Assembly (NCBI GenBank): GCA_964016885.1
Contig: OZ024759.1
Coordinates: forward strand, 3,224,001-3,288,000
Direction of reading: 5' to 3'
DNA length: 64,000 nucleotides
Origin: Eledone cirrhosa
Taxonomy: Eukaryota
Shown here: positions 2,931 through 64,000 of the stretch, in pieces
Position numbering within the stretch: the stretch's first letter is position 1
Layout: each line of letters begins with the position of its first letter
Made by a program: the position numbers and the translations under genes
Notes under the pieces: model-generated
What the model was told of the DNA's origin: nothing
The model's input: only the letters and a program-made list of their open reading frames with translations
Database searches by the model: none

Positions 2931-2989
2931 TATATATATTTCACCCTTTCTCTGTAAAGTTATGTTGGTACCACAACATCCAGTCCAAA

Positions 2990-3240
2990 ATAAATGAGGT
3001 CGTGTAGGTGTCACAGCAAAAAAAAACACACAGTCCATGCTGTAATGTAGCCGTGTAGGTAACATGGTAAAAAGCTCCCAGTTCACACTGTAAACGTGGT
3101 TGTTGTTAGGAAGGGTATCCAGCCGTAGAAAACCTGCCAGATAGTTCTTTACGAGCGAGACACCCTCACCCAACCAATATTGGGACAACTCCTGTCTAAC
3201 CCATGCTAGCGTGGAATATAGACGTTAAACGATGATGATA
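2990..3240 (+). mobile_element. Dispersed RTE/SINE 3' end containing one copy of the satellite monomer
   Basis: 3030-3140 is the reverse complement of one diverged 111-bp monomer. It continues into ...CCCATGCTAGCGTGGAATATAGACGTTAAACGATGATGAT. Confidence 0.85.
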
Positions 3241-3254
3241 TAATATATACATGC

Positions 3255-3370
3255 ATATCATGACTCATACACTGTTCACTTTCCTGACATTTGTACATTA
3301 TTCTATGTACTATACATACAGCTTGATGAGTTGTAGTGCACCTGAGCACTGTACACAATAATTTCATTAT
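3255..3370 (+). mobile_element. CR1-like LINE 3' UTR fragment
   Basis: Similar to 24050-24170 (CATGACTCAT.CACTGTTC...TGATGAGTTGTAGTGCACCT.AGCA.TGTACACAATA). Confidence 0.7.
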
Positions 3371-3537
3371 ACATAGTTTCATAGCTTTTATTGGTTATTT
3401 TGTATTCTGTTTACTGACATGCAGGGGTGGGGGGTCGCGCATTTTATGAAAGGGGTCAATGTTCTGTAAAGTTTGGGGGTCCAAATATAGATCCTTAAAT
3501 AAGTAGCAGACTTGGAAAAAGAAAAAAGATACTAGAA

Positions 3538-4050
3538 TTGAAAGTCGATGGCAGCCATGGTGTGGGCAGGCTTAGGAAGACTTGGGATGAGGTAATAAAA
3601 GCTGACATTGCACAATTACACCTCTCAAAGACAATGACACAGGACCACGACCTCTGGCGCTATGCAGTTTTACAGAAGACTCACCCTCTATTATTCTCAG
3701 GACAACACCTTCCTCAACCTTCTATCCCCTCTCATTCACCTCCCTTAGCGGTAACCATACCTCCCCTGCTACCCTGTTCACATTTTCCCACAAGCTCCTC
3801 CACCCTCCCTAGTCCCAAGACAAAAGTGCCCAGATCCCACTGTAAAGTGGTTGTGTCAGTGACACGACAAAGGTACCCAGCACACACTGTAAAAGTGGTT
3901 GGCGTTAGGAAGGGCATCCAGCCATAAACAACCCACCAGAAACAGTCCTATATGAGCGAGACACGGTCACCCGACCCAACTTGCCTCTAAATGGGACGAA
4001 CCCATCTAAACTATACTAGCATGGAAGATAGACGTTAATCGATGATGATA
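3538..4050 (+). mobile_element. 5'-truncated RTE LINE: ORF C-terminus, 3' UTR and (GAT)n tail
   Basis: KVDGSHGVGRLRKTWDEVIKADIAQLHLSKTMTQDHDLWRYAV (GRP.KTW..D...D...WR motif), then GTTGGCGTTAGGAAGGGCATCCAGCC...GACGTTAATCGATGATGAT. Confidence 0.85.
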
Positions 4051-4082: not shown

Positions 4083-4452
4083 TGTAGCGGTTGTCTCCCT
4101 TGTTTTGATTGGGATCTAGACGGGAGGTAGAACCCTTTCTGCAACTTCCGGTCAGAGCCCTATAAAACTAACAACTTTAAGCTTTCTAACTCTCATTGCC
4201 TTTTCGGCACCCTGGCCAAGAGCCTCTCATTTGGCTCTGCCATTTTTTTGGCCAACAGGCGCCTGGCCTTAGCCAGGCGTCCTCTGCCAGCCGCGTTTGC
4301 CTGGCAATCAAAACGGTAACTACTAACTTTGTTTCATTCTAACATCTATCTTTGACATGTCAAGTATACTATCTACCATTGTTAATTAAATATTATACAC
4401 ACAAACCATGTCTCGTTTTGTTACATTCATACAACCAAGTATCCTCGCTATA
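4083..4452 (+). mobile_element. 5' LTR (370 bp) of a non-autonomous LTR retrotransposon
   Basis: Begins TGTAGCG and ends CGCTATA (inverted termini), contains CCTATAAAA, is followed by a PBS, and its first ~150 bp recur near-identically at 5839. Confidence 0.85.
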
Positions 4453-5826: not shown

Positions 5827-5990
5827 GGCGGGAGGTTATGTAGCGGTTATCTCCCTTGTTTTGATTGGGATCTAGACGGGAGGTAGAACCCTTTCTGCAA
5901 CTTCCGGTCAGAGCCCTATAAAACTAACAACTTTAAGCTTTCTAACTCTCATTGCCTTTTCGGCACCCTGGCCAAGAGCCTCTCATTTGG
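5827..5990 (+). mobile_element. Polypurine tract and truncated 3' LTR
   Basis: GGCGGGAGGTTA precedes TGTAGCGG at 5839. Matches the 5' LTR up to ...CTCTCATTTGG, then breaks off. Confidence 0.85.
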
Positions 5991-10020: not shown

Positions 10021-10066
10021 TACACATACATACATATACATACATACATACATATACACATACATA

Positions 10067-10409
10067 CATCATCATCATCATTTCGTTTTAAGTCCGCTTT
10101 TTCCCTGCTTGCAAGGGTGGGACGGGAACTGATTCTGGCTTGATTTCTACAGCAGGATGCCCTTCCTAACACCAACCTCATTTACAGTGAGTGCTGGGTG
10201 CTTTTTTGCTGTGGCACCTCCACGACCACTTTGCAGTGGAATGATATGGACCCCAGTCCCTATCATCTCATTTCTACAGCTGAGTAAACTGGAGCAATGT
10301 GAAATAAAGTGTATTGCTCAAGGAAACAACACATCACCCGGTCTGAGAATTGAACTCACAACCTTTCGATTGCCAGGCCAATGCTCTAACCACTAAGCCA
10401 TGTGCCTCC
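10067..10409 (-). mobile_element. Full-length tRNA-derived SINE with RTE-type 3' tail
   Basis: Minus strand: GGAGGCACATGGCTTAGTGGTTAGAGC (A box), GAGTTCAATTC (B box), central CCTTGAGCAATACACTTTATTTCACATTGCTCCAG, then GTTGGTGTTAGGAAGGGCATCC...(GAT)n. Confidence 0.9.
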
Positions 10410-10694
10410 ATATACATATACATACACATACATATACATACATATATATATATACATACATACATATATACACATACATACATACACATATATACATACA
10501 TACACATATACATACATATATATACATATACATACATACACATACATAAGCATATACACATAAGTATATATACATATACACACGTATATATACATATACA
10601 TACATACATATATACATATACATACATATATATACATATACATACATACATATATACATACACATACATACATATATACATATATACACATACA
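10410..10694. repeat. Compound (TACA/TA/CA)n microsatellite
   Basis: Low-complexity tract. Similar tracts at 11210-11277, 11885-12100, 12646-12812, 17576-17891, 18408-18647, 19197-19333 and 26334-26672. Confidence 0.95.
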
Positions 10695-12644
10695 TGGTGG
10701 CTACCAACTTGTTTTCGAGTACGGCCACTACTTTATATCCATGTAGGAGAACCCCTACCGATGTGCTGAACGAGTGTGACTTTTTAGTCCAGCCAGCGAC
10801 TTGAAAACTCTGGTACAAACACTACACTTGTGACAATTATTGACACATAGTGCTGGGCCCATGGTACCATGTGACGGCAAGTGCAGAGAGATCTCCAGAT
10901 ATAAAGCAATGCCTGTGCCGTGAAGCTTTTATAGTGAGCAAAGGCACTGCACAAAGCCAGTCCCACTCTCTTAACCAAGATGATATTTACCAAAAAGAAG
11001 AACAAGTCAACATCATTGGATACCATCAGGGTTGCAGGTGTTATATAAGAGTTTTCCTTCTCCTAGAATTCTGCCTTGACAAAAGCTAAGGGGTCATCTC
11101 TCCCAGTGATTTTGGATGGCCATTGACTCTTAAGAGCTCCTTTGCCCTTTGACAGGTTTTGTTTTTAGTCCTGCAGGATGTCCAAAGTCACCCTCCTCAC
11201 CAAGAAACCTTACATACATATATACATACATACACACATATACACATACATACACACATATACATACATATATACATGGTGGCTGCCAACTCGTTTTCGA
11301 GTACGGCCACTACTTTATATCCATGTAGGAGAACCCCTACCGATGCGCTGAACGAGTGTGACTTTTTAGTCCAGACAGCGACTTGACAACTCTGGTACAG
11401 ACACTACACTTGTGACAATTATTGACACATAGTGCTGGGCCCATGGTACCATGTGAGGACAAGTGCAGAGAGATCTCCAGATATAAAGTAGTGCCTGTGC
11501 CGTGAAGCTTTTATAGTGAGCAAAGGCACTGCACAAAGCCAGTCCCACTCTCTTAACCAAGATGATATTTACCAAAAAGAAGAACAAGTCAACATCATTG
11601 GATACCATCAGGGTTGCAGGTGTTATATCAGAGTTTTCCTTCTCCTAGAATTCTGCCTTGACAAAGGCTAAGGGGTCTTCTCTCCCGGTGATTTTGGATG
11701 GCCATTGACTCTTAAGAGCTCCTTTGCTCTTTGACAGGTTTTGTTTTTAGTCCTGCAGGATGTCCAAAGTCACCCGCCTCACCAAGAAACCTTGGTGGGG
11801 TTGCCAGTTTAGTCGCCAACGACCCGACCATGAGACAGGTTGTACTGGGATACATGTTACCAGTAGCACCAACTGGTGACCTGACATACATATATACATA
11901 TACACATACATACATATACATACATATACATACACATACATATATATATATATATACATACACACACATATACATACACACACATACATATACACATATA
12001 TACACATACATACACATACATATACATACATATACACATATACACTCATATATATACATACATACACACACATACATACATACATATATATACATACATA
12101 AAGACAAATCCACCTCATGGACGAGAATGCAAGGGCTCCTCCTCTTTGTTTCGGCCGCGGATGGCTAACATAACCCCATCCCCGCTCCCCACCGCTCCCA
12201 CCCTCCAAACGCAATCCAAAACTTCAGAGTTGGTACCATGAATGTAGGCACCTTAAAGGGTGGCTCTAACGAGATTGTAGAAATGCTTGAACGTAAGGAG
12301 GTCGATGTTTGTTTTATTCAAGAGACCAGGTGGAGGGGTGGGTCTGCTAGATTCATCGTGGGTAAAGAACGATGCAATAAGCTTTTCTGTGTGGGAAATG
12401 ACAATGGGCTGGGTATACACATACCACCCCACCACCCCACCGCAAAGTGGTCGTGGAGGCGCCGCGGCAAAAATGCACCCAGCCCACACTGTAAAGCTGA
12501 CGTGGAGGTGCCACGGAAAAAAAGCACCCAGCACTCACTGCAAACGGGGTTGGCGTCAGGAAGGGCACCCAGCTGTAGAAACCAATCCAGAATCAGCTCC
12601 CATCCCACCCTTGCAAGCATGGAAAAGCGGACGTATGATGAAGT

Positions 12645-12650: not shown

Positions 12651-12710
<60 letters not shown>

Positions 12711-26847: not shown

Positions 26848-26951
26848 ATCATCATCATTATCATCATCGTTTAACGTCCGTGTTCCACGCTTGCATGGGT
26901 TTGGACGGGAGTTTTCCCACTTGAGGCAAGAGTGATTGTCTTGCTCGCATA
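26848..26951 (-). mobile_element. RTE/SINE 3' terminus contiguous with the satellite
   Basis: Minus strand: ...CAGTCCTATGCGAGCAAGAC...CCCATGCAAGCGTGGAACACGGACGTTAAACGATGATGAT, homologous to 3141-3240 and 3940-4050. Confidence 0.9.
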
Positions 26952-29900
26952 GGACTGTCTGGCGGGTTTTCTACAGCTGGATGCCCTTCCTAACACCAAC
27001 CACATTTACAGTGTGGACTGGGAGATTTTTACCGTGTTGCCTACACGGCCACATTACAGCGTGGACTGTCTGGCGGGTTTTCTACAGCTGGATGCCCTTC
27101 CTAACACCAACCACATTTAGTGTGGGGTTGCGAGGTTTTTACCGTGTTGCCTACACGGCCACATTACAGCATGGACTGTCTGGCGGGTTTTTTTACGGCT
27201 GGATGCCCTTCCTAACACCAACCACATTTACAGTGTGGGGCTGGAAGGTTTTCACCGTGTTGCCTACACGGCCACATTACAGCGTGGACTGTCTGGGGGG
27301 TTTTCTACAGCTGGATGCCCTTCCTAACACCAACTACGTTTACAGTGTGGAACTGGGAGGTCTTTACCGTGTTGCCTACACGGCCACATTACAGCATGGA
27401 CTGTCTGGCGGGTTTTCTACGGCTGGATGCCCTTCCTAACACCAACCACATTTACAGTGTGGGCTGGAAGGTTTTTACCGTGTTGCCTACACGGCCACAT
27501 TACAGCGTGGACTGTCTGGCGGGTTTTCTACAGCTGGATGCCCTTCCTAACACCAACTACGTTTACAGTCTGGAACTGGGAGGTTTTTCCCGTGTTGCCT
27601 ACACGGCCACATTACAGCGTGGACTGTCTGGCGGGTTTTCTACGGCTGGATGCCCTTCCTAACACCAACCACATTTACAGTGTGGGCTGGGAGGTTTTTA
27701 CCGTGTTGCCTACACGGCCACATTACAGCGTGGACTGTCTGGCGGGTTTTCTACAGCTGGATGCCCTTCCTAACACCAATCACATTTACAGTGTGGACTG
27801 GGAGATTTTTACCGTGTTGCCTACACGGCCACAATACAGCGTGGACTGTCTGGCGGGTTTTCTACGGCTGGATGCCCTTCCTAGCACCAACAACATTTAC
27901 AGTGTGGACTGGGAGGATTTTACCGTGTTGCCTACACGGCCACATTACAGCGTGGACTGTCTGGCGGGTTTTCTACGGCTGGATGCCCTTCCTAACACCA
28001 ACCACATTTACAGTCTGGACTGGGAGGTTTTTACCGTGTTGCCTACAAGGCCACATTACAGCGTGGACTGTCTGGCGGGTTTTCTACGGCTGGATGCCCT
28101 TCCTAACACCAACCACATTTACATTGTGGACTGGGAGATTTTTACCGTGTTGCCTACACGGCCACATTACAGCGTGGACTGACTGGCGGGTTTTCTACAG
28201 CTGGATGCTCTTCCTAACACCAACCACATTTACAGTGTGGACTGGGAGATTTTTACCGTGTTGCCTACACGGCCACATTACAGCGTGGACTGTCTGGCGG
28301 GTTTTCTACGGCTGGATGCCCTTCCTAACACCAACCACATTTAGTGTGGGGTTGCGTGGTTTTTACAGTGTTGCCTACACGGCCACATTACAGCGTGGAC
28401 TGTCTGGCGGGTTTTCTACGGCTGGATGCCCTTCCTAACACCAACCACATTTACAGTGTGGGGCTGGGAGGTTTTTACCGTGTTGCCTACACGGCCACAT
28501 TACAGCGTGGACTGTCTGGCGGGTTTTCTATGGCTGGATGCCCTTTCTAACACCAACCACATTTACAGTGTGGGCTGGGAGGTTTTTACCGTGTTGCCTA
28601 CACGGCCACATTACAGCGTGGACTGTCTGGCGGGTTTTCTACAGCTGGATGCCCTTCCTAACACCAACTACGCTTACAGTGTGGAACTAGGAGGTTTTTT
28701 CCGTGTTGCCTACACGGCCACATTACAGCGTGGACTGTCTGGCGGGTTTTCTACAGCTGGATGCCCTTCCTAACACCAACCACATTTACAGTGTGGACTG
28801 GGAGATTTTTACCGTGTTGCCTACACGGCCACATTACAGCGTGGACTGTCTGGCGGGTTTTCTACGGCTGGATGCCCTTCCTAACACCAACCACATTTAC
28901 AGTGTGGACTGGGAGGTTTTTACCGTGTTGCCTACACGGCCACATTACAGCGTGGACTGTCTGGCGGGTTTTCTACGGCTGGATGCCCTTCCTAACACCA
29001 ACTACGTTTACAGTGTTGAACTGGGAGGTTTTTAGCGTGTTGCCTACACGGCCACATTACAGCGTGGACTGTCTGGCGGGTTTTCTACAGCTGGATGCCC
29101 TTCCTAACACCAACCACATTTACAGTGTGGACTGGGAGATTTTTACCGTGTTGCCTACACGGCCACATTACAGCGTGGACTGTCTGGCGGGTTTTCTACG
29201 GCTGGATGCCCTTCCTAACACCAACCACATTTACAGAGTGGACTGGGAGGTTTTTACCGTGTTGCCTACACGGCCACATTACAGCGTGGACTGTCTGGCG
29301 GGTTATCTACGGCTGGATGCCCTTCCTAACACCAACCACATTTACAGTGTGGACTGGGAGGTTTTTACCGTGTTGCCTACACGGCCACATTACAGCGTGG
29401 ACTGTCTGGCGGGTTTTCTACGGCTGGATGCCCTTCCTAACACCAACCACATTTACATTGTGGACTGGGAGATTTTTACCGTGTTGCCTACACGGCCAGA
29501 TTACAGCGTGGACTGACTGGCGGGTTATCTACGGCTGGATGCCCTTCCTAACACCAACCACATTTACAGTGTGGGGCTGGGAGGTTTTTACCGTGTTGCC
29601 TACACGGCCACATTACAGCGTGGACTGTCTGGCGGGTTTTCTATGGCTGGATGCCCTTTCTAACACCAACCACATTTACAGTGTGGGCTGGGAGGTTTTT
29701 ACCGTGTTGCCTACACGGCCACATTACAGCGTGGACTGTCTGGCGGGTTTTCTACAGCTGGATGCCCTTCCTAACACCAACTACGCTTACAGTGTGGAAC
29801 TGGGAGGTTTTTTCCGTGTTGCCTACACGGCCACATTACAGCGTGGACTGTCTGGCGGGTTTTCTACAGCTGGATGCCCTTCCTAACACCAACCACATTT

Positions 29901-32900
29901 ACAGTGTGGACTGGGAGATTTTTACCGTGTTGCCTACACGGCCACATTACAGCGTGGACTGTCTGGCGGGTTTTCTACGGCTGGATGCCCTTCCTAACAC
30001 CAACCACATTTACAGTGTGGACTGGGAGGTTTTTACCGTGTTGCCTACACGGCCACATTACAGCGTGGACTGTCTGGCGGGTTTTCTACGGCTGGATGCC
30101 CTTCCTAACACCAACTACGTTTACAGTGTTGAACTGGGAGGTTTTTAGCGTGTTGCCTACACGGCCACATTACAGCGTGGACTGTCTGGCGGGTTTTCTA
30201 CAGCTGGATGCCCTTCCTAACACCAACCACATTTACAGTGTGGACTGGGAGATTTTTACCGTGTTGCCTACACGGCCACATTACAGCGTGGACTGTCTGG
30301 CGGGTTTTCTACGGCTGGATGCCCTTCCTAACACCAACCACATTTACAGAGTGGACTGGGAGGTTTTTACCGTGTTGCCTACACGGCCACATTACAGCGT
30401 GGACTGTCTGGCGGGTTATCTACGGCTGGATGCCCTTCCTAACACCAACCACATTTACAGTGTGGACTGGGAGGTTTTTACCGTGTTGCCTACACGGCCA
30501 CATTACAGCGTGGACTGTCTGGCGGGTTTTCTACGGCTGGATGCCCTTCCTAACACCAACCACATTTACATTGTGGACTGGGAGATTTTTACCGTGTTGC
30601 CTACACGGCCAGATTACAGCGTGGACTGACTGGCGGGTTATCTACGGCTGGATGCCCTTCCTAACACCAACCACATTTACAGTGTGGACTGGGAGGTTTT
30701 TACCGTGTTGCCTACACGGCCACATTACAGCGTGGACTGTCTGGCGGGTTTTCTACGGCTGGATGCCCTTCCTAACACCAACCACATTTACATTGTGGAC
30801 TGGGAGATTTTTACCGTGTTGCCTACACGGCCACATTACAGTGTGGACTGACTGGCGGGTTTTCTACAGCTGGATGCTCTTCCTAACACCAACCACATTT
30901 ACAGTGTGGACTGGGAGATTTTTACCGTGTTGCCTACACGGCCACATTACAGCGTGGACTGTCTGGCGGGTTTTCTACAGCTGGATGCCCTTCCTAACAC
31001 CAAGCACATTTACAGTGTGGACTGGGAGATTTTTACCGTGTTGCCTACACGGCCACATTACAGCGTGGACTGTCTGGCGGGTTTTCTACGGCTGGATGCC
31101 CTTCCTAACACCAACCACATTTACAGTGTGGACTGGGAGGTTTTTGCCGTGTTGCCTACACGGCCACATTACAGCGTGGACTGTCTGGTGGGTTTTCTAC
31201 GGCTGGATGCCCTTCCTAACACCAACCACATTTAGTGTGGGGTTGCGAGGTTTTTACTGTGTTGCTTACACGGCCACATTATAGCGTGGACTGTCTGGCG
31301 GGTTTTCTACGGCTGGATGCCCTTCCTAACACCAACCACATTTACAGTGTGGACTGGGAGGTTTTTACCGTGTTGCCTACACGGCCACATTACAGCGTGG
31401 ACTGTCTGGCGGGTTATCTACGGCTGGATGCCCTTCCTAACACCAACCACATTTACAGTGTGGACTGGGAGGTTTTTACCGTGTTGCCTACACGGCCACA
31501 TTACAGCGTGGACTGTCTGGCGGGTTTTCTACGGCTGGATGCCCTTCCTAACACCAACCACATTTACATTGTGGACTGGGAGATTTTTACCGTGTTGCCT
31601 ACACGGCCACATTACAGCGTGGACTGACTGGCGGGTTTTCTACAGCTGGATGCTCTTCCTAACACCAACCACATTTACAGTGTGGACTGGGAGATTTTTA
31701 CCGTGTTGCCTACACAGCCACATTACAGCGTGGACTGTCTTGCGGGTTTTCTACGGCTGGATGCCCTTCCTAACACCAACCACATTTACGGTGTGGGGCT
31801 GGGAGGATTTTACTGTGTTGCCTACACAGCCACATTACAGCGTGGACTGTCTGGCGGGTTTTCTACAGCTGGATGCCCTTCCTAACACCAACCACATTTA
31901 CAGTGTGGACTGGGAGATTTTTACCGTGTTGCCTACACGGCCACATTACAGCGTGGACTGTCTGGCGTGTTTTCTACGGCTGGATGCCCTTCCTAACACC
32001 AACCACATTTACAGTGTGGACTGGGAGATTTTTACCGTGTTGCCTACACGGCCACATTACAGCGTGGACTGTCTGGCGGGTTTTCTACAGCTGGATGCCC
32101 TTCCTAACACCAACCACATTTACATTGTGGACTGGGAGGTTTTTACCGTGTTGCCTACACGGCCACATTACAGCGTGGACTGTCTGGCGGGTTTTCTACG
32201 GCTGGATGCCCTTCCTAACACCAACCACGTTTACAGTGTGGACTGGGAGGTTTTTACCGTGTTGCCTACACGGCCACATTACAGCGTGGACTGTCTGGCG
32301 GGTTTTCTACGGCTGGATGCCCTTCCTAACACCAACCACATTTACAGTGTGGGCTGGGAGGTTTTTACCGTGTTGCCTACACGGCCACATTACAGCGTGG
32401 ACTGTCTGGCGGGTTTTCTACGGCTGGATGCCCTTCCTAACACCAACCACATTTACAGTGTGGTGCTGGGAGGTTTTTACTGTGTTGCCTCCACAGCCAC
32501 ATTACAGCGTGGACTGTCTGGCGGGTTTTCTACAGCTGGATGCCCTTCCTAACACCAACTACGTTTACAGTGTGGAACTGGGAGGTTTTTACCGTGTTGC
32601 CTACACGGCCACATTACAGCGTGGACTGTCTGGCGGGTTTTCTACGGCTGGATGCCCTTCCTAACACCAACCACATTTACAGTGTGGTGCTGGGAGGTTT
32701 TTACTGTGTTGCCTCCACAGCCACATTACAGCGTGGACTGTCTGGCGGGTTTTCTACAGCTGGATGCCCTTCCTAACACCAACTACGTTTACAGTGTGGA
32801 ACTGGGAGGTTTTTACCGTGTTGCCTACACGGCCACATTACAGCGTGGACTGTCTGGCGGGTTTTCTACGGCTGGATGCCCTTCCTAACACCAACCACAT

Positions 32901-35900
32901 TTACAGTGTGGGCTGGGAGGTTTTTACCGTGTTGCCTACACGGCCACATTACAGCGTGGACTGTCTGGCGGGTTTTCTACAGCTGGATGCCCTTCCTAAC
33001 ACCAACCACATTTACAGTGTGGACTGGGAGATTTTTACCGTGTTGCCTACACGGCCACATTACAGCGTGGACTGTCTGGCGGGTTTTCTACGGCTGGATG
33101 CCCTTCCTAACACCAACCACATTTACAGTGTGGACTGGGAGGTTTTTACCGTGTTGCCTACACGGCCACATTACAGCGTGGACTGTCTGGCGGGTTTTCT
33201 ACGGCTGGATGCCCTTCCTAACACCAACTACGTTTACAGTGTTGAACTGGGAGGTTTTTAGCGTGTTGCCTACACGGCCACATTACAGCGTGGACTGTCT
33301 GGCGGGTTTTCTACAGCTGGATGCCCTTCCTAACACCAACCACATTTACAGTGTGGACTGGGAGATTTTTACCGTGTTGCCTACACGGCCACATTACAGC
33401 GTGGACTGTCTGGCGGGTTTTCTACGGCTGGATGCCCTTCCTAACACCAACCACATTTACAGAGTGGACTGGGAGGTTTTTACCGTGTTGCCTACACGGC
33501 CACATTACAGCGTGGACTGTCTGGCGGGTTATCTACGGCTGGATGCCCTTCCTAACACCAACCACATTTACAGTGTGGACTGGGAGGTTTTTACCGTGTT
33601 GCCTACACGGCCACATTACAGCGTGGACTGTCTGGCGGGTTTTCTACGGCTGGATGCCCTTCCTAACACCAACCACATTTACATTGTGGACTGGGAGATT
33701 TTTACCGTGTTGCCTACACGGCCAGATTACAGCGTGGACTGACTGGCGGGTTATCTACGGCTGGATGCCCTTCCTAACACCAACCACATTTACAGTGTGG
33801 GGCTGGGAGGTTTTTACCGTGTTGCCTACACGGCCACATTACAGCGTGGACTGTCTGGCGGGTTTTCTATGGCTGGATGCCCTTTCTAACACCAACCACA
33901 TTTACAGTGTGGGCTGGGAGGTTTTTACCGTGTTGCCTACACGGCCACATTACAGCGTGGACTGTCTGGCGGGTTTTCTACAGCTGGATGCCCTTCCTAA
34001 CACCAACTACGCTTACAGTGTGGAACTGGGAGGTTTTTTCCGTGTTGCCTACACGGCCACATTACAGCGTGAACTGTCTGGCGGGTTTTCTACAGCTGGA
34101 TGCCCTTCCTAACACCAACCACATTTACAGTGTGGACTGGGAGATTTTTACCGTGTTGCCTACACGGCCACATTACAGCGTGGACTGTCTGGCGGGTTTT
34201 CTACGGCTGGATGCCCTTCCTAACACCAACCACATTTACAGTGTGGACTGGGAGGTTTTTACCGTGTTGCCTACACGGCCACATTACAGCGTGGACTGTC
34301 TGGCGGGTTTTCTACGGCTGGATGCCCTTCCTAACACCAACTACGTTTACAGTGTTGAACTGGGAGGTTTTTAGCGTGTTGCCTACACGGCCACATTACA
34401 GCGTGGACTGTCTGGCGGGTTTTCTACAGCTGGATGCCCTTCCTAACACCAACCACATTTACAGTGTGGACTGGGAGATTTTTACCGTGTTGCCTACACG
34501 GCCACATTACAGCGTGGACTGTCTGGCGGGTTTTCTACGGCTGGATGCCCTTCCTAACACCAACCACATTTACAGAGTGGACTGGGAGGTTTTTACCGTG
34601 TTGCCTACACGGCCACATTACAGCGTGGACTGTCTGGCGGGTTATCTACGGCTGGATGCCCTTCCTAACACCAACCACATTTACAGTGTGGACTGGGAGG
34701 TTTTTACCGTGTTGCCTACACGGCCACATTACAGCGTGGACTGTCTGGCGGGTTTTCTACGGCTGGATGCCCTTCCTAACACCAACCACATTTACATTGT
34801 GGACTGGGAGATTTTTACCGTGTTGCCTACACGGCCAGATTACAGCGTGGACTGACTGGCGGGTTATCTACGGCTGGATGCCCTTCCTAACACCAACCAC
34901 ATTTACAGTGTGGACTGGGAGGTTTTTACCGTGTTGCCTACACGGCCACATTACAGCGTGGACTGTCTGGCGGGTTTTCTACGGCTGGATGCCCTTCCTA
35001 ACACCAACCACATTTACATTGTGGACTGGGAGATTTTTACCGTGTTGCCTACACGGCCACATTACAGTGTGGACTGACTGGCGGGTTTTCTACAGCTGGA
35101 TGCTCTTCCTAACACCAACCACATTTACAGTGTGGACTGGGAGATTTTTACCGTGTTGCCTACACGGCCACATTACAGCGTGGACTGTCTGGCGGGTTTT
35201 CTACAGCTGGATGCCCTTCCTAACACCAAGCACATTTACAGTGTGGACTGGGAGATTTTTACCGTGTTGCCTACACGGCCACATTACAGCGTGGACTGTC
35301 TGGCGGGTTTTCTACGGCTGGATGCCCTTCCTAACACCAACCACATTTACAGTGTGGACTGGGAGGTTTTTGCCGTGTTGCCTACACGGCCACATTACAG
35401 CGTGGACTGTCTGGTGGGTTTTCTACGGCTGGATGCCCTTCCTAACACCAACCACATTTAGTGTGGGGTTGCGAGGTTTTTACTGTGTTGCTTACACGGC
35501 CACATTATAGCGTGGACTGTCTGGCGGGTTTTCTACGGCTGGATGCCCTTCCTAACACCAACCACATTTACAGTGTGGACTGGGAGGTTTTTACCGTGTT
35601 GCCTACACGGCCACATTACAGCGTGGACTGTCTGGCGGGTTATCTACGGCTGGATGCCCTTCCTAACACCAACCACATTTACAGTGTGGACTGGGAGGTT
35701 TTTACCGTGTTGCCTACACGGCCACATTACAGCGTGGACTGTCTGGCGGGTTTTCTACGGCTGGATGCCCTTCCTAACACCAACCACATTTACATTGTGG
35801 ACTGGGAGATTTTTACCGTGTTGCCTACACGGCCACATTACAGCGTGGACTGACTGGCGGGTTTTCTACAGCTGGATGCTCTTCCTAACACCAACCACAT

Positions 35901-38900
35901 TTACAGTGTGGACTGGGAGATTTTTACCGTGTTGCCTACACGGCCACATTACAGCGTGGACTGTCTTGCGGGTTTTCTACGGCTGGATGCCCTTCCTAAC
36001 ACCAACCACATTTACGGTGTGGGGCTGGGAGGATTTTACTGTGTTGCCTACACAGCCACATTACAGCGTGGACTGTCTGGCGGGTTTTCTACAGCTGGAT
36101 GCCCTTCCTAACACCAACCACATTTACAGTGTGGACTGGGAGATTTTTACCGTGTTGCCTACACGGCCACATTACAGCGTGGACTGTCTGGCGGGTTTTC
36201 TACGGCTGGATGCCCTTCCTAACACCAACCACATTTACAGTGTGGACTGGGAGATTTTTACCGTGTTGCCTACACGGCCACATTACAGCGTGGACTGTCT
36301 GGCGGGTTTTCTACAGCTGGATGCCCTTCCTAACACCAACCACATTTACATTGTGGACTGGGAGGTTTTTACCGTGTTGCCTACACGGCCACATTACAGC
36401 GTGGACTGTCTGGCGGGTTTTCTACGGCTGGATGCCCTTCCTAACACCAACCACGTTTACAGTGTGGACTGGGAGGTTTTTACCGTGTTGCCTACACGGC
36501 CACATTACAGCGTGGACTGTCTGGCGGGTTTTCTACGGCTGGATGCCCTTCCTAACACCAACCACATTTACAGTGTGGGCTGGGAGGTTTTTACCGTGTT
36601 GCCTACACGGCCACATTACAGCGTGGACTGTCTGGCGGGTTTTCTACGGCTGGATGCCCTTCCTAACACCAACCACATTTACAGTGTGGTGCTGGGAGGT
36701 TTTTACTGTGTTGCCTCCACAGCCACATTACAGCGTGGACTGTCTGGCGGGTTTTCTACAGCTGGATGCCCTTCCTAACACCAACTACGTTTACAGTGTG
36801 GAACTGGGAGGTTTTTACCGTGTTGCCTACACGGCCACATTACAGCGTGGACTGTCTGGCGGGTTTTCTACGGCTGGATGCCCTTCCTAACACCAACCAC
36901 ATTTACAGTGTGGTGCTGGGAGGTTTTTACTGTGTTGCCTCCACAGCCACATTACAGCGTGGACTGTCTGGCGGGTTTTCTACAGCTGGATGCCCTTCCT
37001 AACACCAACTACGTTTACAGTGTGGAACTGGGAGGTTTTTACCGTGTTGCCTACACGGCCACATTACAGCGTGGACTGTCTGGCGGGTTTTCTACGGCTG
37101 GATGCCCTTCCTAACACCAACCACATTTACAGTGTGGGCTGGGAGGTTTTTACCGTGTTGCCTACACGGCCACATTACAGCGTGGACTGTCTGGCGGGTT
37201 TTCTACAGCTGGATGCCCGTCCTAACACCAACTACGCTTACAGTGAGGAACTGGGAGGTTATTACCGTGTTGCCTACACGACCACATTACAGCGTGGACT
37301 GTCTGGCGGGTTTTCTACAGCTGGATGCCCTTCCTAACACCAACCACATTTACAGTGTGGACTGGGAGATTTTTACCGTGTTGCCTACACGGCCACATTA
37401 CAGCGTGGACTGTCTGGCGGGTTTTCTACGGCTGGATGCCCTTCCTAACACCAACCACATTTACAGTGTGGACTGGGAGGTTTTTACCGTGTTGCCTACA
37501 CGGCCACATTACAGCGTGGACTGTCTGGCGGGTTTTCTACGGCTGGATGCCCTTCCTAACACCAACCACATTTACAGTGTGGACTGGGAGGTTTTTACCG
37601 TGTTGCCTACACGGCCACATTACAGCGTGGACTGTCTGGCGGGTTTTCTACGGCTGGATGCCCTTCCTAACACCAACCACATTTAGTGTGGGGTTGCGAG
37701 GTTTTTACTGTGTTGCTTACACGGCCACATTATAGCGTGGACTGTCTGGCGGGTTTTCTACGGCTGGATGCCCTTCCTAACACCAACCACATTTACAGTG
37801 TGGACTGGGAGGTTTTTACCGTGTTGCCTACACGGCCACATTACAGCGTGGACTGTCTGGCGGGTTATCTACGGCTGGATGCCCTTCCTAACACCAACCA
37901 CATTTACAGTGTGGACTGGGAGGTTTTTACCGTGTTGCCTACACGGCCACATTACAGCGTGGACTGTCTGGCGGGTTTTCTACGGCTGGATGCCCTTCCT
38001 AACACCAACCACATTTACATTGTGGACTGGGAGATTTTTACCGTGTTGCCTACACGGCCACATTACAGCGTGGACTGACTGGCGGGTTTTCTACAGCTGG
38101 ATGCTCTTCCTAACACCAACCACATTTACAGTGTGGACTGGGAGATTTTTACCGTGTTGCCTACACGGCCACATTACAGCGTGGACTGTCTGGCGGGTTT
38201 TCTACGGCTGGATGCCCTTCCTAACACCAACCACATTTACAGTGTGGGGCTGGGAGGTTTTTACTGTGTTGCCTACACAGCCACATTACAGCGTGGACTG
38301 TCTGGCGGGTTTTCTACAGCTGGATGCCCTTCCTAACACCAACTACGTTTACAGTGTGGAACTGGGAGGTTTTTACCGTGTTTCCTACACGGCCACATTA
38401 CAGCGTGGACTGTCTGGCGGGTTTTCTACGGCTGGATGCCCTTCCTAACACCAACCACATTTACAGTGTGGGCTGGGAGGTTTTTACCGTGTTGCCTACA
38501 CGGCCACATTACAGTGTGGACTGTCTGGCGGGTTTTCTACAGCTGGATGCCCTTCCTAACACCAACTACGCTTACAGTGTGGAACTGGGAGGTTTTTACC
38601 GTGTTGCCTACACGGCCACATTACAGCGTGGACTGTCTGGCGGGTTTTCTACAGCTGGATGCCCTTCCTAACACCAACCACATTTACAGTGTGGACTGGG
38701 AGTTTTTACCGTGTTGCCTACACGGCCACATTACAGCGTGGACTGTCTGGCGGGTTTTCTACGGCTGGATGCCCTTCCTAACACCAACCACATTTACAGT
38801 GTGGACTGGGAGGTCTTTACCGTGTTCCCTACACGGCCACATTACAGCGTGGACTGTCTGGCGGGTTTTCTACGGCTGGATGCCCTTCCTAACACCAACC

Positions 38901-41900
38901 ACATTTACAGTGTGGACTGGGAGGTTTTTACCGTGTTGCCTACAAGGCCACATTACAGCGTGGACTGTCTGGCGGGTTTTCTACGGCTGGATGCCCTTCC
39001 TAACACCAACCACATTTACATTGTGGACTGGGAGATTTTTACCGTGTTGCCTACACGGCCACATTACAGCGTGGACTGTCTGGCGGGTTTTCTACAGCTG
39101 GATGCCCTTCCTAACACCAACCACATTTAGTGTGGGGTTGCGAGGTATTTGCTGTGTTGCTTACACGGCCACATTACAGCGTGGACTGTCTGGCGGGTTT
39201 TCTACAGCTGGATGCCCTTCCTAACACCAACCACATTTACAGTGTGGACTGGGAGATTTTTACCGTGTTGCCTACACGGCCACATTACAGCGTGGACTGT
39301 CTGGCGGGTTTTCTACGGCTGGATGCCCTTCCTAACACCAACCACATTTACAGTGTGGACTGGGAGATTTTTACCGTGTTGCCTACACGGCCACATTACA
39401 GCGTGGACTGACTGGCGGGTTTTCTACAGCTGGATGCTCTTCCTAACACCAACCACATTTACAGTGTGGACTGGGAGATTTTTACCGTGTTGCCTACACG
39501 GCCACATTACAGCGTGGACTGTCTGGCGGGTTTTCTACAGCTGGATGCCCTTCCTAACACCAACCACATTTACAGTGTGGACTGGGAGATTTTTACCGTG
39601 TTGCCTACACGGCCACATTACAGCGTGGACTGTCTGGCGGGTTTTCTACGGCTGGATGCCCTTCCTAACACCAACCACGTTTACAGTGTGGACTGGGAGG
39701 TTTTTACCGTGTTGCCTACACGGCCACATTACAGCGTGGACTGTCTGGCGGGTTTTCTACGGCTGGATGCCCTTCCTAACACCAACCACATTTACATTGT
39801 GGACTGGGAGATTTTTACCGTGTTGCCTACACGGCCACATTACAGCGTGGACTGTCTGGCGGGTTATCTACGGCTGGATGCCCTTCCTAACACCAACCAC
39901 ATTTACAGTGTGGACTGGGAGGTTTTTACCGTGTTGCCTACACGGCCACATTACAGCGTGGACTGTCTGGCGGGTTTTCTACGGCTGGATGCCCTTCCTA
40001 ACACCAACCACATTTAGTGTGGGGTTGCGAGGTTTTTACTGTGTTGCTTACACGGCCACATTATAGCGTGGACTGTCTGGCGGGTTTTCTACGGCTGGAT
40101 GCCCTTCCTAACACCAACCACATTTACAGTGTGGACTGGGAGATTTTTACCGTGTTGCCTACACGGCCACATTACAGCGTGGACTGTCTGGCGGGTTATC
40201 TACGGCTGGATGCCCTTCCTAGCACCAACCACATTTACAGTGTGGACTGGGAGGTTCTTACCGTGTTGCCTACACGGCCACATTACAGCGTGGACTGTCT
40301 GGCGGGTTTTCTACGGTTGGATGCACTTCCTAACACCAACCACATTTACATTGTGGACTGGGAGATTTTTACCGTGTTGCCTACACGGCCACATTACAGC
40401 GTGGACTGACTGGCGGGTTTTCTACAGCTGGATGCTCTTCCTAACACCAACCACATTTACAGTGTGGACTGGGAGATTTTTACCGTGTTGCCTACACGGC
40501 CACATTACAGCGTGGACTGTCTGGCGGGTTTTCTACGGCTGGATGCCCTTCCTAACACCAACCACATTTACAGTGTGGTGCTGGGAGGTTTTTACTGTGT
40601 TGCCTCCACAGCCACATTACAGCGTGGACTGTCTGGCGGGTTTTCTACAGCTGGATGCCCTTCCTAACACCAACTACGTTTACAGTGTGGAACTGGGAGG
40701 TTTTTACCGTGTTGCCTACACGGCCACATTACAGCGTGGACTGTCTGGCGGGTTTTCTACGGCTGGATGCCCTTCCTAACACCAACCACATTTACATTGT
40801 GGGCTGGGAGGTTTTTACCGTGTTGCCTACACGGCCACATTACAGTGTGGACTGTCTGGCGGGTTTTCTACAGCTGGATGCCCGTCCTAACACCAACTAC
40901 GCTTACAGTGAGGAACTGGGAGGTTTTTACCGTGTTGCCTACACGACCACATTACAGCGTGGACTGTCTGGCGGGTTTTCTACAGCTGGATGCCCTTCCT
41001 AACACCAACCACATTTACAGTGTGGACTGGGAGATTTTTACCGTGTTGCCTACACGGCCACATTACAGCGTGGACTGTCTGGCGGGTTTTCTACGGCTGG
41101 ATGCCCTTCCTAACACCAACCACATTTACAGTGTGGACTGGGAGGTTTTTACCGTGTTGCCTACACGGCCACATTACAGCGTGGACTGTCTGGCGGGTTT
41201 TCTACGGCTGGATGCCCTTCCTAACACCAACCACATTTACAGTGTGGACTGGGAGGTTTTTACCGTGTTGCCTACACGGCCACATTACAGCGTGGACTGT
41301 CTGGCGGGTTTTCTACGGCTGGATGCCCTTCCTAACACCAACCACATTTAGTGTGGGGTTGCGAGGTTTTTACTGTGTTGCTTACACGGCCACATTATAG
41401 CGTGGACTGTCTGGCGGGTTTTCTACGGCTGGATGCCCTTCCTAACACCAACCACATTTACAGTGTGGACTGGGAGGTTTTTACCGTGTTGCCTACACGG
41501 CCACATTACAGCGTGGACTGTCTGGCGGGTTATCTACGGCTGGATGCCCTTCCTAACACCAACCACATTTACAGTGTGGACTGGGAGGTTTTTACCGTGT
41601 TGCCTACACGGCCACATTACAGCGTGGACTGTCTGGCGGGTTTTCTACGGCTGGATGCCCTTCCTAACACCAACCACATTTACATTGTGGACTGGGAGAT
41701 TTTTACCGTGTTGCCTACACGGCCACATTACAGCCTGGACTGACTGGCGGGTTTTCTACAGCTGGATGCTCTTCCTAACACCAACCACATTTACAGTGTG
41801 GACTGGGAGATTTTTACCGTGTTGCCTACACGGCCACATTACAGCGTCGACTGTCTGGCGGGTTTTCTACGGCTGGATGCCCTTCCTAACACCAACCACA

Positions 41901-44900
41901 TTTACAGAGTGGGGCTGGGAGGTTTTTACTGTGTTGCCTACACAGCCACATTACAGCGTGGACTGTCTGGCGGGTTTTCTACAGCTGGATGCCCTTCCTA
42001 ACACCAACTACGTTTACAGTGTGGAACTGGGAGGTTTTTACCGTGTTGCCTACACGGCCACATTACAGCGTGGACTGTCTGGCGGGTTTTCTACGGCTGG
42101 ATGCCCTTCCTAACACCAACCACATTTACAGTGTGGGCTGGGAGGTTTTTACCGTGTTGCCTACACGGCCACATTACAGTGTGGACTGTCTGGCGGGTTT
42201 TCTACAGCTGGATGCCCTTCCTAACACCAACTACGCTTACAGTGTGGAACTGGGAGGTTTTTACCGTGTTGCCTACACGGCCACATTACAGCGTGGACTG
42301 TCTGGCGGGTTTTCTACAGCTGGATGCCCTTCCTAACACCAACCACATTTACAGTGTGGACTGGGAGTTTTTACCGTGTTGCCTACACGGCCACATTAGA
42401 GCGTGGACTGTCTGGCGGGTTTTCTACGGCTGGATGCCCTTCCTAACACCAACCACATTTACAGTGTGGACTGGGAGGTTTTTACCGTGTTCCCTACACG
42501 GCCACATTACAGCGTGGACTGTCTGGCGGGTTTTCTACGGCTGGATGCCCTTCCTAACACCAACCACATTTACAGTGTGGACTGGGAGGTTTTTACCGTG
42601 TTGCCTACAAGGCCACATTACAGCGTGGACTGTCTGGCGGGTTTTCTACGGCTGGATGCCCTTCCTAACACCAACCACATTTACATTGTGGACTGGGAGA
42701 TTTTTACCGTGTTGCCTACACGGCCACATTACAGCGTGGACTGTCTGGCGGGTTTTCTACAGCTGGATGCCCTTCCTAACACCAACCACATTTAGTGTGG
42801 GGTTGCGAGGTTTTTGCTGTGTTGCTTACACGGCCACATTATAGCGTGGACTGTCTGGCGGGTTTTCTACGGCTGGATGCCCTTCCTAACACCAACCACA
42901 TTTACAGTGTGGACTGGGAGGTTTTTACCGTGTTGCCTACACGGCCACATTACAGCGTGGACTGTCTGGCGGGTTATCTACGGCTGGATGCCCTTCCTAA
43001 CACCAACCACATTTACAGTGTGGACTGGGAGGTTTTTACCGTGTGGCCTACACGGCCACATTACAGCGTGGACTGTCTGGCGGGTTTTCTACGGCTGGAT
43101 GCCCTTCCTAACACCAACCACATTTACAGTGTGGACTGGGAGATTTTTACCGTGTTGCCTACACGGCCACATTACAGCGTGGACTGACTGGCGGGTTTTC
43201 TACAGCTGGATGCCCTTCCTAACACCAACCACATTTACAGTGTGGACTGGGAGATTTTTACCGTGTTGCCTACACGGCCACATTACAGCGTGGACTGTCT
43301 GGCGGGTTTTCTACGGCTGGATGTCCTTCCTAACACCAACCACATTTACAGTGTGGGGCTGGGAGGTTTTTACTGTGTTGCCTACACAGCCACATTACAG
43401 CGTGGACTGTCTGGCGGGTTTTCTACAGCTGGATGCCCTTCCTAACACCAACTACGTTTACAGTGTGGAACTGGGAGGTTTTTACCGTGTTGCCTACACG
43501 GCCACATTACAGCGTGGACTGTCTGGCGGGTTTTCTACGGCTGGATGCCCTTCCTAACACCAACCACATTTACAGTGTGGACTGGGAGGTTTTTACCGTG
43601 TTGCCTACACGCCCACATTACAGCGTGGACTGTCTGGCGGGTTTTCTACGGCTGGATGCCCTTCCTAACACCAACCACATTTACAGTGTGGACTGGGAGG
43701 TTTTTACCGTGTTGCCTACACGCCCACATTACAGCGTGGACTGTCTGGCGGGTTTTCTACGGCTGGATGCCCTTCTTAACACCAACCACATTTACAGTGT
43801 GGACTGGGAGGTTTTAACCGTGTTGCCTACAAGGCCACATTACAGCGTGGACTGTCTGGCGGGTTTTCTACGGCTGGATGCCCTGCCTAACACCAACCAC
43901 ATTTACATTGTGGACTGGGAGATTTTTACCGTGTTGCCTACACGGCCACATTACAGCGTGGACTGTCTGGCGGGTTTTCTACAGCTGGATGCCCTTCCTA
44001 ACACCAACTACGTTTACAGTGTGGAACTGGGAGGTTTTTCCCGTGTTGCGTACACGGCCACATTACAGCGTGGACTGTCTGGCGGGTTTTCTACAGCTGG
44101 ATGCCCTTCCTAACACCAACCACATTTACAGTGTGGACTGGGAGGTTTTTACCGTGTTGCCTACACGGCCACATTACAGCGTGGACTGTCTGGCGGGTTA
44201 TCTACGGCTGGATGCCCTTCCTAACACCAACCACATTTACAGTGTGGAACTGGGAGGTTTTTACCGTGTTGCCTACACGGCCACATTACAGCGTGGACTG
44301 TCTGGCGGGTTTTCTACAGCTGGATGCCCTTCCTAACACCAACTACGTTTACAGTGTGGAACTGGGAGGTTTTTACCGTGTTGCCTACACGGCCACATTA
44401 CAGCGTGGACTGTCTGGCGGGTTTTCTACGGCTGGATGCCCTTCCTAACACCAACCACATTTACAGTGTGGGCTGGGAGGTTTTTACCGTGTTGCCTACA
44501 CGGCCACATTACAGTGTGGACTGTCTGGCGGGTTTTCTACAGCTGGATGCCCGTCCTAACACCAACTACGCTTACAGTGAGGAACTGGGAGGTTTTTACC
44601 GTGTTGCCTACACGACCACATTACAGCGTGGACTGTCTGGCGGGTTTTCTACAGCTGGATGCCCTTCCTAACACCAACCACATTTACAGTGTGGACTGGG
44701 AGATTTTTACCGTGTTGCCTACACGGCCACATTACAGCGTGGACTGTCTGGCGGGTTTTCTACGGCTGGATGCACTTCCTAACACCAACCACATTTACAG
44801 TGTGGACTGGGAGATTTTTACCGTGTTGCCTACACGGCCACATTACAGCGTGGACTGTCTGGCGGGTTTTCTACGGCTGGATGCCCTTCCTAACACCAAC

Positions 44901-47900
44901 CACATTTACAGTGTGGACTGGGAGGTTTTTACCGTGTTGCCTACACGGCCACATTACAGCGTGGACTGTCTGGCGGGTTTTCTACGGCTGGATGCCCTTC
45001 CTAACACCAACCACATTTAGTGTGGGGTTGCGAGGTTTTTACTGTGTTGCTTACACGGCCACATTATAGCGTGGACTGTCTGGCGGGTTTTCTACGGCTG
45101 GATGCCCTTCCTAACACCAACCACATTTCCAGTGTGGACTGGGAGGTTTTTACCGTGTTGCCTACACGGCCACATTACAGCGTGGACTGTCTGGCGGGTT
45201 ATCTACGGCTGGATGCCCTTCCTAACACCAACCACATTTACAGTGTGGACTGGGAGGTTTTTACCGTGTTGCCTACACGGCCACATTACAGCGTGGACTG
45301 TCTGGCGGGTTTTCTACGGCTGGATGCCATTCCTAACACCAACCACATTTACATTGTGGACTGGGAGATTTTTACCGTGTTGCCTACACGGCCACATTAC
45401 AGCGTGGACTGACTGGCGGGTTTTCTACAGCTGGATGCTCTTCCTAACACCAACCACATTTACAGTGTGGACTGGGAGATTTTTACCGTGTTGCCTACAC
45501 GGCCACATTACAGCGTGGACTGTCTGGCGGGTTTTCTACGGCTGGATGCCCTTCCTAACACCAACCACATTTACAGTGTGGGGCTGGGAGGTTTTTACTG
45601 TGTTGCCTACACAGCCACATTACAGCGTGGACTATCTGGCGGGTTTTCTACAGCTGGATGCCCTTCCTAACACCAACTACGTTTACAGTGTGGAACTGGG
45701 AGGTTTTTACCGTGTTGCCTACACGGCCACATTACAGCGTGGACTGTCTGGCGGGTTTTCTACGGCTGGATGCCCTTCCTAACACCAACCACATTTACAG
45801 TGTGGGCTGGGAGGTTTTTACCGTGTTGCCTACACGGCCACATTACAGTGTGGACTGTCTGGCGGGTTTTCTACAGCTGGATGCCCTTCCTAACACCAAC
45901 TACGCTTACAGTGTGGAACTGGGAGGTTTTTACCGTGTTGCCTACACGGCCACATTACAGCGTGGACTGTCTGGCGGGTTTTCTACAGCTGGATGCCCTT
46001 CCTAACACCAACCACATTTACAGTGTGGACTGGGAGGTTTTTACCGTGTTGCCTACACGGCCACATTACAGCGTGGACTGTCTGGCGGGTTATCTACGGC
46101 TGGATGCCCTTCCTAACACCAACCACATTTACAGTGTGGACTGGGAGGTTTTTACCGTGTTGCCTACACGGCCACATTACAGCGTGGACTGTCTGGCGGG
46201 TTTTCTACGGCTGGATGCCCTTCCTAACACCAACCACATTTACATTGTGGACTGGGAGATTTTTACCGTGTTGCCTACACGGCCACATTACAGCGTGGAC
46301 TGACTGGCGGGTTTTCTACAGCTGGATGCTCTTCCTAACACCAACCACATTTACAGTGTGGACTGGGAGATTTTTACCGTGTTGCCTACACGGCCACATT
46401 ACAGCGTGGACTGTCTGGCGGGTTTTCTACGGCTGGATGCCCTTCCTAACACCAACCACATTTACAGTGTGGGGCTGGGAGGTTTTTACTGTGTTGCCTA
46501 CACAGCCACATTACAGCGTGGACTATCTGGCGGGTTTTCTACAGCTGGATGCCCTTCCTAACACCAACTACGTTTACAGTGTGGAACTGGGAGGTTTTTA
46601 CCGTGTTGCCTACACGGCCACATTACAGCGTGGACTGTCTGGCGGGTTTTCTACGGCTGGATGCCCTTCCTAACACCAACCACATTTACAGTGTGGGCTG
46701 GGAGGTTTTTACCGTGTTGCCTACACGGCCACATTACAGTGTGGACTGTCTGGCGGGTTTTCTACAGCTGGATGCCCTTCCTAACACCAACTACGCTTAC
46801 AGTGTGGAACTGGGAGGTTTTTACCGTGTTGCCTACACGGCCACATTACAGCGTGGACTGTCTGGCGGGTTTTCTACGGCTGGATGCCCTTCCTAACACC
46901 AACCACATTTACAGTGTGGACTGGGAGGTTTTTACCGTGTTCCCTACACGGCCACATTACAGCGTGGACTGTCTGGCGGGTTTTCTACAGCTGGATGCCC
47001 TTCCTAACACCAACTACGTTTACAGTGTGGAACTGGGAGGTTTTTCCCGTGTTGCCTACACGGCCACATTGCAGCGTGGACTGTCTGGCGGGTTTTCTAC
47101 AGCTGGATGCCCTTCCTAACACCAACCACATTTACAGTGTGGACTGGGAGGTTTTTACCGTGTTGCCTACACGGCCATTTTACAGCGTGGACTGTTTGGC
47201 GGGTTATCTACGGCTGGATGCCCTTCCTAACACCAACCACATTTACAGTGTGGAACTGGGAGGTTTTTACCGTGTTGCCTACACGGCCACATTACAGCGT
47301 GGACTGTCTGGCGGGTTTTCTACGGCTGGATGCTATTCCTAACACCAACCACATTTACATTTTGGACTGGGAGATTTTTACCATGTTGCCTACACGGCCA
47401 CATTACAGCGTGGACTGACTGGCGGGTTTTCTACAGCTGGATGCTCTTCCTAACACCAACCACATTTACAGTGTGGACTGGGAGATTTTTACCGTGTTGC
47501 CTACACGGCCACATTACAGCGTGGACTGTCTGGCGGGTTTTCTACGGCTGGATGCCCTTCCTAACACCAACCACATTTAGTGTGGGGTAGCGAGGTTTTT
47601 ACTGTGTTGCCTACACGGCCACATTACAGCGTGAACTGTCTGGCGGGTTTTCTACGGCTGGATGCCCTTCCTAACACCAACCACATTTACATTGTGGACT
47701 GGGAGATTTTTACCGTGTTGCCTACACGGCCACATTACAGCGTGGACTGACTGGCGGGTTTTCTACAGCTGGATGCTCTTCCTAACACCAACCACATTTA
47801 CAGTGTGGACTGGGAGATTTTTACCGTGTTGCCTACACGCCCACATTACAGCGTGGACTGTCTGGCGGGTTTTCTACGGCTGGATGCCCTTCCTAACACC

Positions 47901-62900: not shown

Positions 62901-64000
62901 CTTCCTAACACCAACCACATTTACAGTGTGGACTGGGAGGTTTTTACCGGGTTGCCTACACGGCCACATTACAGCGTGGACTGTCTGGCGGGTTATCTAC
63001 GGCTGGATGCCCTTCCTAACACCAACCACATTTACAGTGTGGACTGGGAGGTTTTTACCGTGTTGCCTACACGGCCACATTACAGCGTGGACTGACTGGC
63101 GGGTTTTCTACAGCTGGATGCTCTTCCTAACACCAACCACATTTACAGTGTGGGCTGGGAGGTTTTTACCGTGTTGCCTACACGGCCACATTACAGTGTG
63201 GACTGTCTGGCGGGTTTTCTACAGCTGGATGCCCTTCCTAACACCAACTACGCTTACAGTGTGGAACTGGGAGGTTTTTACCGCGTTGCCTACACGGCCA
63301 CATTACAGCGTGGACTGTCTGGTGGGTTTTCTACGGCCTGATGCCCTTCCTAACACCAACCACATTTACAGTGTGGACTGGGAGGTTTTTACCGTGTTGC
63401 CTACAAGGCCACATTACAGCGTGGACTGTCTGGCGGGTTTTCTACGGCTGGATGCCCTTCCTAACACCAACCACATTTACATAGTGGACAGGGAGATTTT
63501 TACCGTGTTGCCTACACGGCCACATTACAGCGTGGACTGTCTGGCGGGTTTTCTACAGCTGGATGCCCTTCCTAACACCAACCACATTTACAGTGTGGAC
63601 TGGGAGATTTTTACCGTGTTGCCTACACGGCCACATTACAGCGTGGACTGTCTGGCGGGTTTTCTACGGCTGGATGCCCTTCCTAACACCAACCACATTT
63701 ACAGTGTGGACTGGGAGGTTTTTACCGGGTTGCCTACACGGCCACATTACAGCGTGGACTGTCTGGCGGGTTATCTACGGCTGGATGCCCTTCCTAACAC
63801 CAACCACATTTACAGTGTGGACTGGGAGGTTTTTACCGTGTTGCCTACACGGCCACATTACAGCGTGGACTGTCTGGCGGGTTTTCTACAGCTGGATGCC
63901 CTTCCTAACACCAACTACGTTTACAGTGTGGAACTGGGAGGTTTTTCCCGTGTTGCCTACACGGCCACATTACAGCGTGGACTGTCTGGCGGGTTTTCTA
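26952..64000. repeat. 111-bp satellite array (~330 monomers, continues past the window end) with higher-order repeats
   Basis: Consensus GGACTGTCTGGCGGGTTTTCTACRGCTGGATGCCCTTCCTAACACCAACCACATTTACAGTGTGGACTGGGAGRTTTTTACCGTGTTGCCTACACGGCCACATTACAGCGT. Head-to-tail in one orientation, with 110-112-bp variants and no visible insertions. Confidence 0.99.

Follow-up and report, generated by a model that had tools for sequence, protein, structure and literature searches.

The stretch of DNA that we analysed (hereafter the window) covers 64,000 nt of the Eledone cirrhosa genome (assembly GCA_964016885.1, contig OZ024759.1, positions 3,224,001-3,288,000 of the forward strand). According to Tandem Repeats Finder, an array with a 111-bp period extends from position 26952 to the window end, and relatives of its monomer are dispersed elsewhere in the window (Table 1). 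The full monomers are 111 bp (236 monomers), 112 bp (79), 110 bp (17) or 113 bp (1) long. Their mean identity to the array consensus is 97.1% and shows no trend with position in the array. At its other edge, the terminal array unit runs on to the element end. About 600 bp from this edge lies a perfect 213-bp inverted repeat (25377-25589 / 26121-26333), which has the look of a recent insertion of the foldback or MITE type.

Table 1. Coordinates of the satellite array, the dispersed copies and their parts within the window
Feature	Position	Strand	Description
Satellite array	26952..64000	-	333 full monomers of 110-113 bp; continues past the window end
Element 3' continuation and GAT-repeat tail	26850..26951	-	Joins the terminal monomer without a break
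Copy A	2942..3240	+	5'-truncated member of the abundant retroelement-tail family, terminating in a GAT-repeat tail; over 3037-3147, 99/111 positions match the array consensus
Third subrepeat, upstream (subrepeat 1)	2947-2997	+	Weaker; 138/3000 shuffles reach the 1-vs-2 score
Two diverged ~50-bp subrepeats (2 and 3)	2998-3049, 3050-3099	+	0/3000 shuffles reach the 2-vs-3 score
Upstream ACAGTCC, copy A	3030..3036	+	CAGTCC motif of internal subrepeat 2
Downstream partner ATAGTTC, copy A	3141..3147	+	ACAGTCC in the array and the edge copy
Copy B	3820..4050	+	Downstream ACAGTCC intact (3942-3948); upstream site CCAGATCC; 89/115 identical to the consensus
Copy C	10060..10410	-	SINE-like, tRNA-like head at 10343-10400; duplicate (C2) at ~17225-17570
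Copy D	12436..12640	+	Two subrepeats; upstream site CCCAGCCC; duplicate (D2) at ~18983-19190

Six dispersed relatives of the monomer were identified in the window, all of which terminate in a short GAT-type tail. Four of them are independent (copies A to D), the other two (C2, D2) lying within a local duplication. Identity to the array consensus is 73-89% for the dispersed copies overall (89/116 for copy C and 83/114 for copy D). Copies C (10110-10155) and D (12568-12612) lack about 40 bp from the downstream CAGTCC-like site on, a segment present in copies A and B and in the edge copy. As for the type of the parent element, a tRNA-like head is seen in copy C, which belongs to another subtype (Rfam tRNA, 27.6 bits, under the cut-off of 29), copy A is 5'-truncated, and ARAGORN called 0 genes. 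An endonuclease-like fragment lies before copy D (Pfam Exo_endo_phos, E-value = 0.0088, under the cut-off). A search for a target-site duplication of copy A returned a low-complexity AT run only. For the protein encoded by the frame at 3499-3690 we found no Pfam family, unnamed clusters only, and no homologue among 25 candidates; this frame, which lies before copy B, may look like the terminal part of an RTE LINE. The repeats are presumably octopus-like, and the family may be similar in sequence to the octopus OR2 CORE-SINE and its relatives.

The local tandem duplication measures about 7 kb (5999-12992 / 13163-19747, 98% identical over 5.3 kb); it contains copies C and D, and a reverse-transcriptase frame on the minus strand (8032-9099, Pfam RVT_1, E-value = 1.6e-11). 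A 153-bp direct repeat (4083-4235 / 5839-5991, 99% identical) has its second end near the start of this duplication. The window also holds a minisatellite at 1154-2054 with periods of 23, 50 and 73 bp, and an imperfect palindrome of about 214 bp (79%) at 22180-22393.

The element is itself internally repetitive. Each of the three subrepeats of copy A carries a CAGYYC motif (at 2981, 3031 and 3079), and the monomer halves are paralogous to each other (0/3000 shuffles). The satellite monomer is thus a diverged two-subrepeat unit of 48 + 63 bp, and the 7-mer ACAGTCC discussed below is a relic of this older subrepeat periodicity.

The earlier note had placed ACAGTCC at 3030-3036, its degenerate partner ATAGTTC 111 bp away at 3141-3147, and further ACAGTCC sites at 26952-26958 (minus strand) and 3942-3948, all of which is correct. 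In the whole window, ACAGTCC occurs outside the array only at 3030 and 3942, each time within a family copy. Within the array, the last 7 nt are ACAGTCC in 293 of the 333 monomers and TCAGTCC in 29; the extended monomer end GCCAGACAGTCC is found in 278/333 and the monomer start ACGCTGTAATGT in 287/333. On a template combining the upstream side of copy A with the downstream side of the array-edge copy, the microhomology at the monomer junction amounts to 7 nt. For units of 40-250 bp, 7 nt or more is reached by 83 of 27,641 breakpoint pairs (0.30%), and 6 nt or more by 146 (0.53%). This template is composed of two copies, both sites being intact in no single dispersed copy of the window. In copy A the arms are spaced by one unit length, 111 bp, if the downstream arm is read from the edge copy. 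The 7-mer is the sole exact stretch common to both junction contexts: to its right the two show no extended similarity (2723/3000 shuffles reach the score), and to its left a weak one (238/3000). Five out of five single-strand folds computed at the junction were unremarkable (z between -1.0 and +0.3).

The upstream 7-mer is found in copy A only and is absent from B, C/C2 and D/D2, that is, it is present in one of four independent dispersed copies. The homologous site reads CCAGATCC in copy B and CCCAGCCC in copy D, and is unrelated in copy C. That a short direct repeat in the dispersed element served to cut out the monomer, as proposed, is supported by the monomer ends and the 7-nt junction. 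ACAGTCC does not seem to be a special, family-wide site: it is a motif of the ~50-bp subrepeat, copies B and D differ there, and many family reads carry ATCAGTTC downstream. We infer from one cousin copy that the microhomology may safely be put at 6-7 nt for the array's own subfamily.

The abundance of the family was assessed in public reads mapped on 2940-3270, two runs (X1 and X2, assembled contigs) coming from one sample and two (X7 and X8, RAD reads) from another study. The copy A region recruited 16,780 (X1) and 16,334 (X2) contigs, and 24,391 (X7) and 25,128 (X8) RAD reads. Read depth shows no step at 3030, both sides of the monomer being covered, and loose ends go on upstream of 2942, which together indicate that copy A is an ordinary 5'-truncated member of a very large family. 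Contigs from other family members are colinear across 3030. The tail form of the edge copy is represented by 36-38 contigs per run, and a form with ATCAGTTC downstream by the loose ends of 1139 and 1396 RAD reads. Since the tails of copy A and the edge copy are identical at 72 of 94 positions and the edge form has separate contigs, copy A is to be regarded as a cousin of the founder rather than the founder. A pattern scan for family copies returned none in metagenome contigs and none in viral contigs.

Copy A differs from the array at 12 positions, 10 of which are among the 40 of 136 read-derived positions listed. The upstream site (3030-3036) is not among these 40; positions 3060 and 3135, where entries were expected, are likewise missing, and a reading of the absence of 3030 as conservation was therefore rejected. 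The array base is the X1 majority (72-98%) at 8 of these 10, counts to which array-derived contigs may add. At 3142 the array base (C) accounts for 47% of X1, and at 3146 (also C) for 98% of X1 depth; at 3095 it accounts for 9% in X1 and 66-77% in X7. The X1 majorities place the array near the family master. With monomers 97% identical to their consensus against 73-89% for the dispersed copies, the array is also younger than these copies. What the array multiplies is an internal 111-bp piece of the tail of an abundant dispersed retroelement. The direction from element to satellite is supported by the abundance of the family, by the colinear flanks and by the unbroken join to the tail.

Signs of the later growth of the array are readable in the order of its monomers, of which 121 are distinct (64 singletons). 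Runs of identical monomers recur at a lag of 53 (28 and 23 monomers long) and at a lag of 38 (15, 10 and 8). Shorter runs of 5-7 monomers are found at lags of 60, 48, 46, 33, 28, 17, 10, 8 and 7. When the monomer order was shuffled (200 trials), no identical run exceeded 4. No array-wide variant period was detected at any lag, lag 4 included; a 445-bp higher-order repeat of four monomers was tried as a candidate and rejected, there being no dip at lag 4. Nested blocks of this kind are in keeping with segmental duplication or with unequal exchange proceeding in steps, and not with one pass of a rolling circle. Rolling-circle amplification, suggested in the earlier note, is thus unsupported for the growth that can be read, the blocks being nested at many lags without a single period. 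No self-cleaving ribozyme family was found among 76 Rfam matches (E-value ≤ 1) in positions 1-27500, which include about 5 monomers. The monomer also contains a longer repeated pair, CAGTCCAC (8 nt, 48 bp apart), and gain or loss of the 48-bp unit between its members was seen in 0/333 monomers. As for point variation, G>A and C>T make up 31 of the 103 distinct variants of the array, and both transitions are found at 5/5 CpG sites of the consensus (10 variants).

We consider that the first duplication is best explained by slippage or unequal exchange between 6-7-bp repeats of the CAGTCC type, with block duplications thereafter, and we put the probability of this reading at roughly 0.58. One young copy of the element would have mispaired by two subrepeat periods, and the strands would have rejoined within the sole exact stretch common to both contexts. 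At its upstream site the founder copy would have had the full ACAGTCC or no less than CAGTCC, and this microhomology would have caused the first duplication. The dimer would then have grown in place, unequal exchange making the blocks. Slippage and the other routes that use microhomology would be expected to have the same outcome in sequence. Against this reading stand the presence of the upstream 7-mer in only one of four copies, the position of copy A outside the tail subfamily of the founder, the 141-bp junction described below, and the 8-nt pair of the monomer, which is longer and yet has not been reused in any of the 333 monomers. The earlier note had attributed the monomer to slippage, unequal exchange or circle excision at ACAGTCC. 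Seeding at a short repeat retains the support of the junction microhomology (0.30%), whereas the nested blocks speak against the rolling circle. No function is implied for the satellite.

A second tandem junction was found in the reads, among the 15 of 38 joints covered. A joint going back 141 bp (from 3141 to 3001) is present in 4/4 runs examined, with a depth of 599 in X1 (2 contigs) and 140 in X2 (1 contig), and with 22 reads from 3 starts in X7 and 12 reads from 1 start in X8. Given that most of the pieces listed have a depth of 8-24, this joint is probably multicopy. One X1 contig spells out the junction, which has about 1 nt of microhomology on the template of copy A and the edge copy. 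Its 3' break falls inside the 7-mer of the 111-bp junction and its re-entry point elsewhere. Among the weaker joints listed, some go back by 34, 43, 94, 95 or 124 bp and others skip one subrepeat (53-54 bp). An independent 111-bp joint was not seen among the 15 of 38 joints listed, although the contigs of variable satellites are short and may well miss it. The 141-bp junction, which comes from the same subfamily, is a candidate for a second satellite elsewhere in the genome. Expansions on unrelated breakpoints had been named beforehand as evidence against an origin at ACAGTCC. The 141-bp joint is such a case in part, having nearly the same 3' break but another re-entry point with about 1 nt of microhomology. 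It indicates that this element can form tandem junctions without a need for microhomology.

That two junctions, as well as the shorter subtype seen in copies C and D, reuse one 3' break is the one lead that merits pursuit. It bears on an alternative in which the first dimer arose in retrotransposition, the reverse transcriptase jumping near GCCAGA/CAGTCC and the inserted dimer expanding afterwards. The 111- and 141-bp junctions both break within 3140-3147 (about 3% by chance, a rough 8/260), the ~40 bp missing from copies C and D start at the same site, and the array retains an intact 3' tail. We nevertheless hold this origin to be unlikely: dispersed dimers bearing a target-site duplication of their own were not seen, a hotspot of DNA breaks or replication stalls would be expected to leave the same pattern, and the fold at the site is unremarkable (z -1.0 to +0.3). 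A wider version, decidedly speculative, would make the GCCAGA/CAGTCC site a recurrent template-jump point, at which retrotransposition keeps making tandem seeds (of 111 bp, 141 bp and subrepeat multiples) that grow into satellites. If this were true, the family would offer a natural series in which to test what seeds turn into satellites.

The match at the junction might also be incidental, a break having been repaired without microhomology and the first A of the ACAGTCC of copy A being private to that copy. The upstream site is CCAG in copies B and D and CCAGT at the paralogous subrepeat sites, the 141-bp junction makes do with about 1 nt, and the 111-bp junction was picked after the fact. 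Since even a 6-nt match is reached by just 0.53% of breakpoint pairs, we find such a coincidence improbable. We give equally little credence to the excision of a circle of 111 bp (or 111n bp) at the repeat, followed by its rolling-circle amplification and reinsertion. Excision between direct repeats would yield the same junction, and an early burst could be hidden by old homogenisation. However, the variants lie in nested blocks at many lags with no single period, the array is continuous with the element tail as expected for expansion in place, and positions 1-27500 matched no ribozyme family. Lastly, recombination might have moved the upstream ACAGTCC from the satellite into copy A, in which case the argument would be circular; we rate this as highly improbable. 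Copy A is the dispersed copy closest to the array (99/111) and the sole one with the upstream 7-mer, but contigs of other members are colinear over 3030 with no depth step, at none of the positions listed do copy A and the array agree on a base other than that of the family majority, and the 12 differences of copy A from the array look private.

The preferred reading, short-repeat seeding followed by block duplications, has known counterparts. In squamate reptiles, SINE-derived satellites (sSat) are described by Vassetzky et al. (2023, PMC10702118), in the text available, as tandem units of 70-290 nt that correspond to an inner portion of an interspersed element of high abundance. The unit at one terminus reaches the element end, there are up to hundreds of units, long arrays are homogeneous, and several independent units come from one family. 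The Eledone array resembles them in having a unit that is homologous to, and shorter than, the element (73-89% to copies A-D), a terminal unit that runs to the element end, and at least 4 middle monomers (333). It differs in belonging to an invertebrate genome and in that its parent may be the 3' UTR of a LINE and not a tRNA-headed SINE. Breakpoints of sSat are not discussed in the available text of that paper, where "microhomolog" and "junction" have 0 occurrences. Copy C may compare with the octopus OR2 CORE-SINE, named in the available text of PMC4758252, in its tRNA-like head and common tail.

In microhomology-mediated tandem duplication (MTD), as set out in the available text of Wei et al. 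(2026, PMC13167724), which builds on Haber and Louis, a segment between short direct repeats duplicates and may then expand. By the authors' criteria, nearly 80% of human tandem repeats with at least 3 copies carry such arms. Two features are shared here, namely a unit length equal to the arm spacing (111 bp) and a microhomology beyond random expectation (0.30% and 0.53% of breakpoint pairs). In contrast to MTD, the arms are older subrepeat relics in a multicopy retroelement, the single-copy state is read from a paralog instead of an allele, and the copies number at least 333. Other satellites derive from transposons, among them the common cetacean satellite from the LINE-1 3' UTR, the routes proposed in the available texts being microhomology-mediated end joining and non-allelic recombination (PMC9659126, PMC12628747). 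Both the cetacean satellite and this one come from part of a non-LTR element, the present case differing in element and lineage and in that the candidate arms can still be read in a dispersed relative. We found no published description of this satellite in its group, in a search whose coverage was thin for the subscription literature, including the original octopus SINE papers.

The Eledone array is therefore a satellite with a retroelement parent, probably seeded by microhomology-mediated tandem duplication, both being of known kinds. Its route of birth is ordinary and already described, and it adds detail at the level of the junction to the sSat and MTD models while leaving them unchanged. 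It provides a clean case in which the parent sequence of a satellite and its first junction are still readable. Taken genome-wide, the 111-bp, 141-bp and subrepeat junctions within one huge family could serve to gauge the weight of microhomology in the seeding of satellites.
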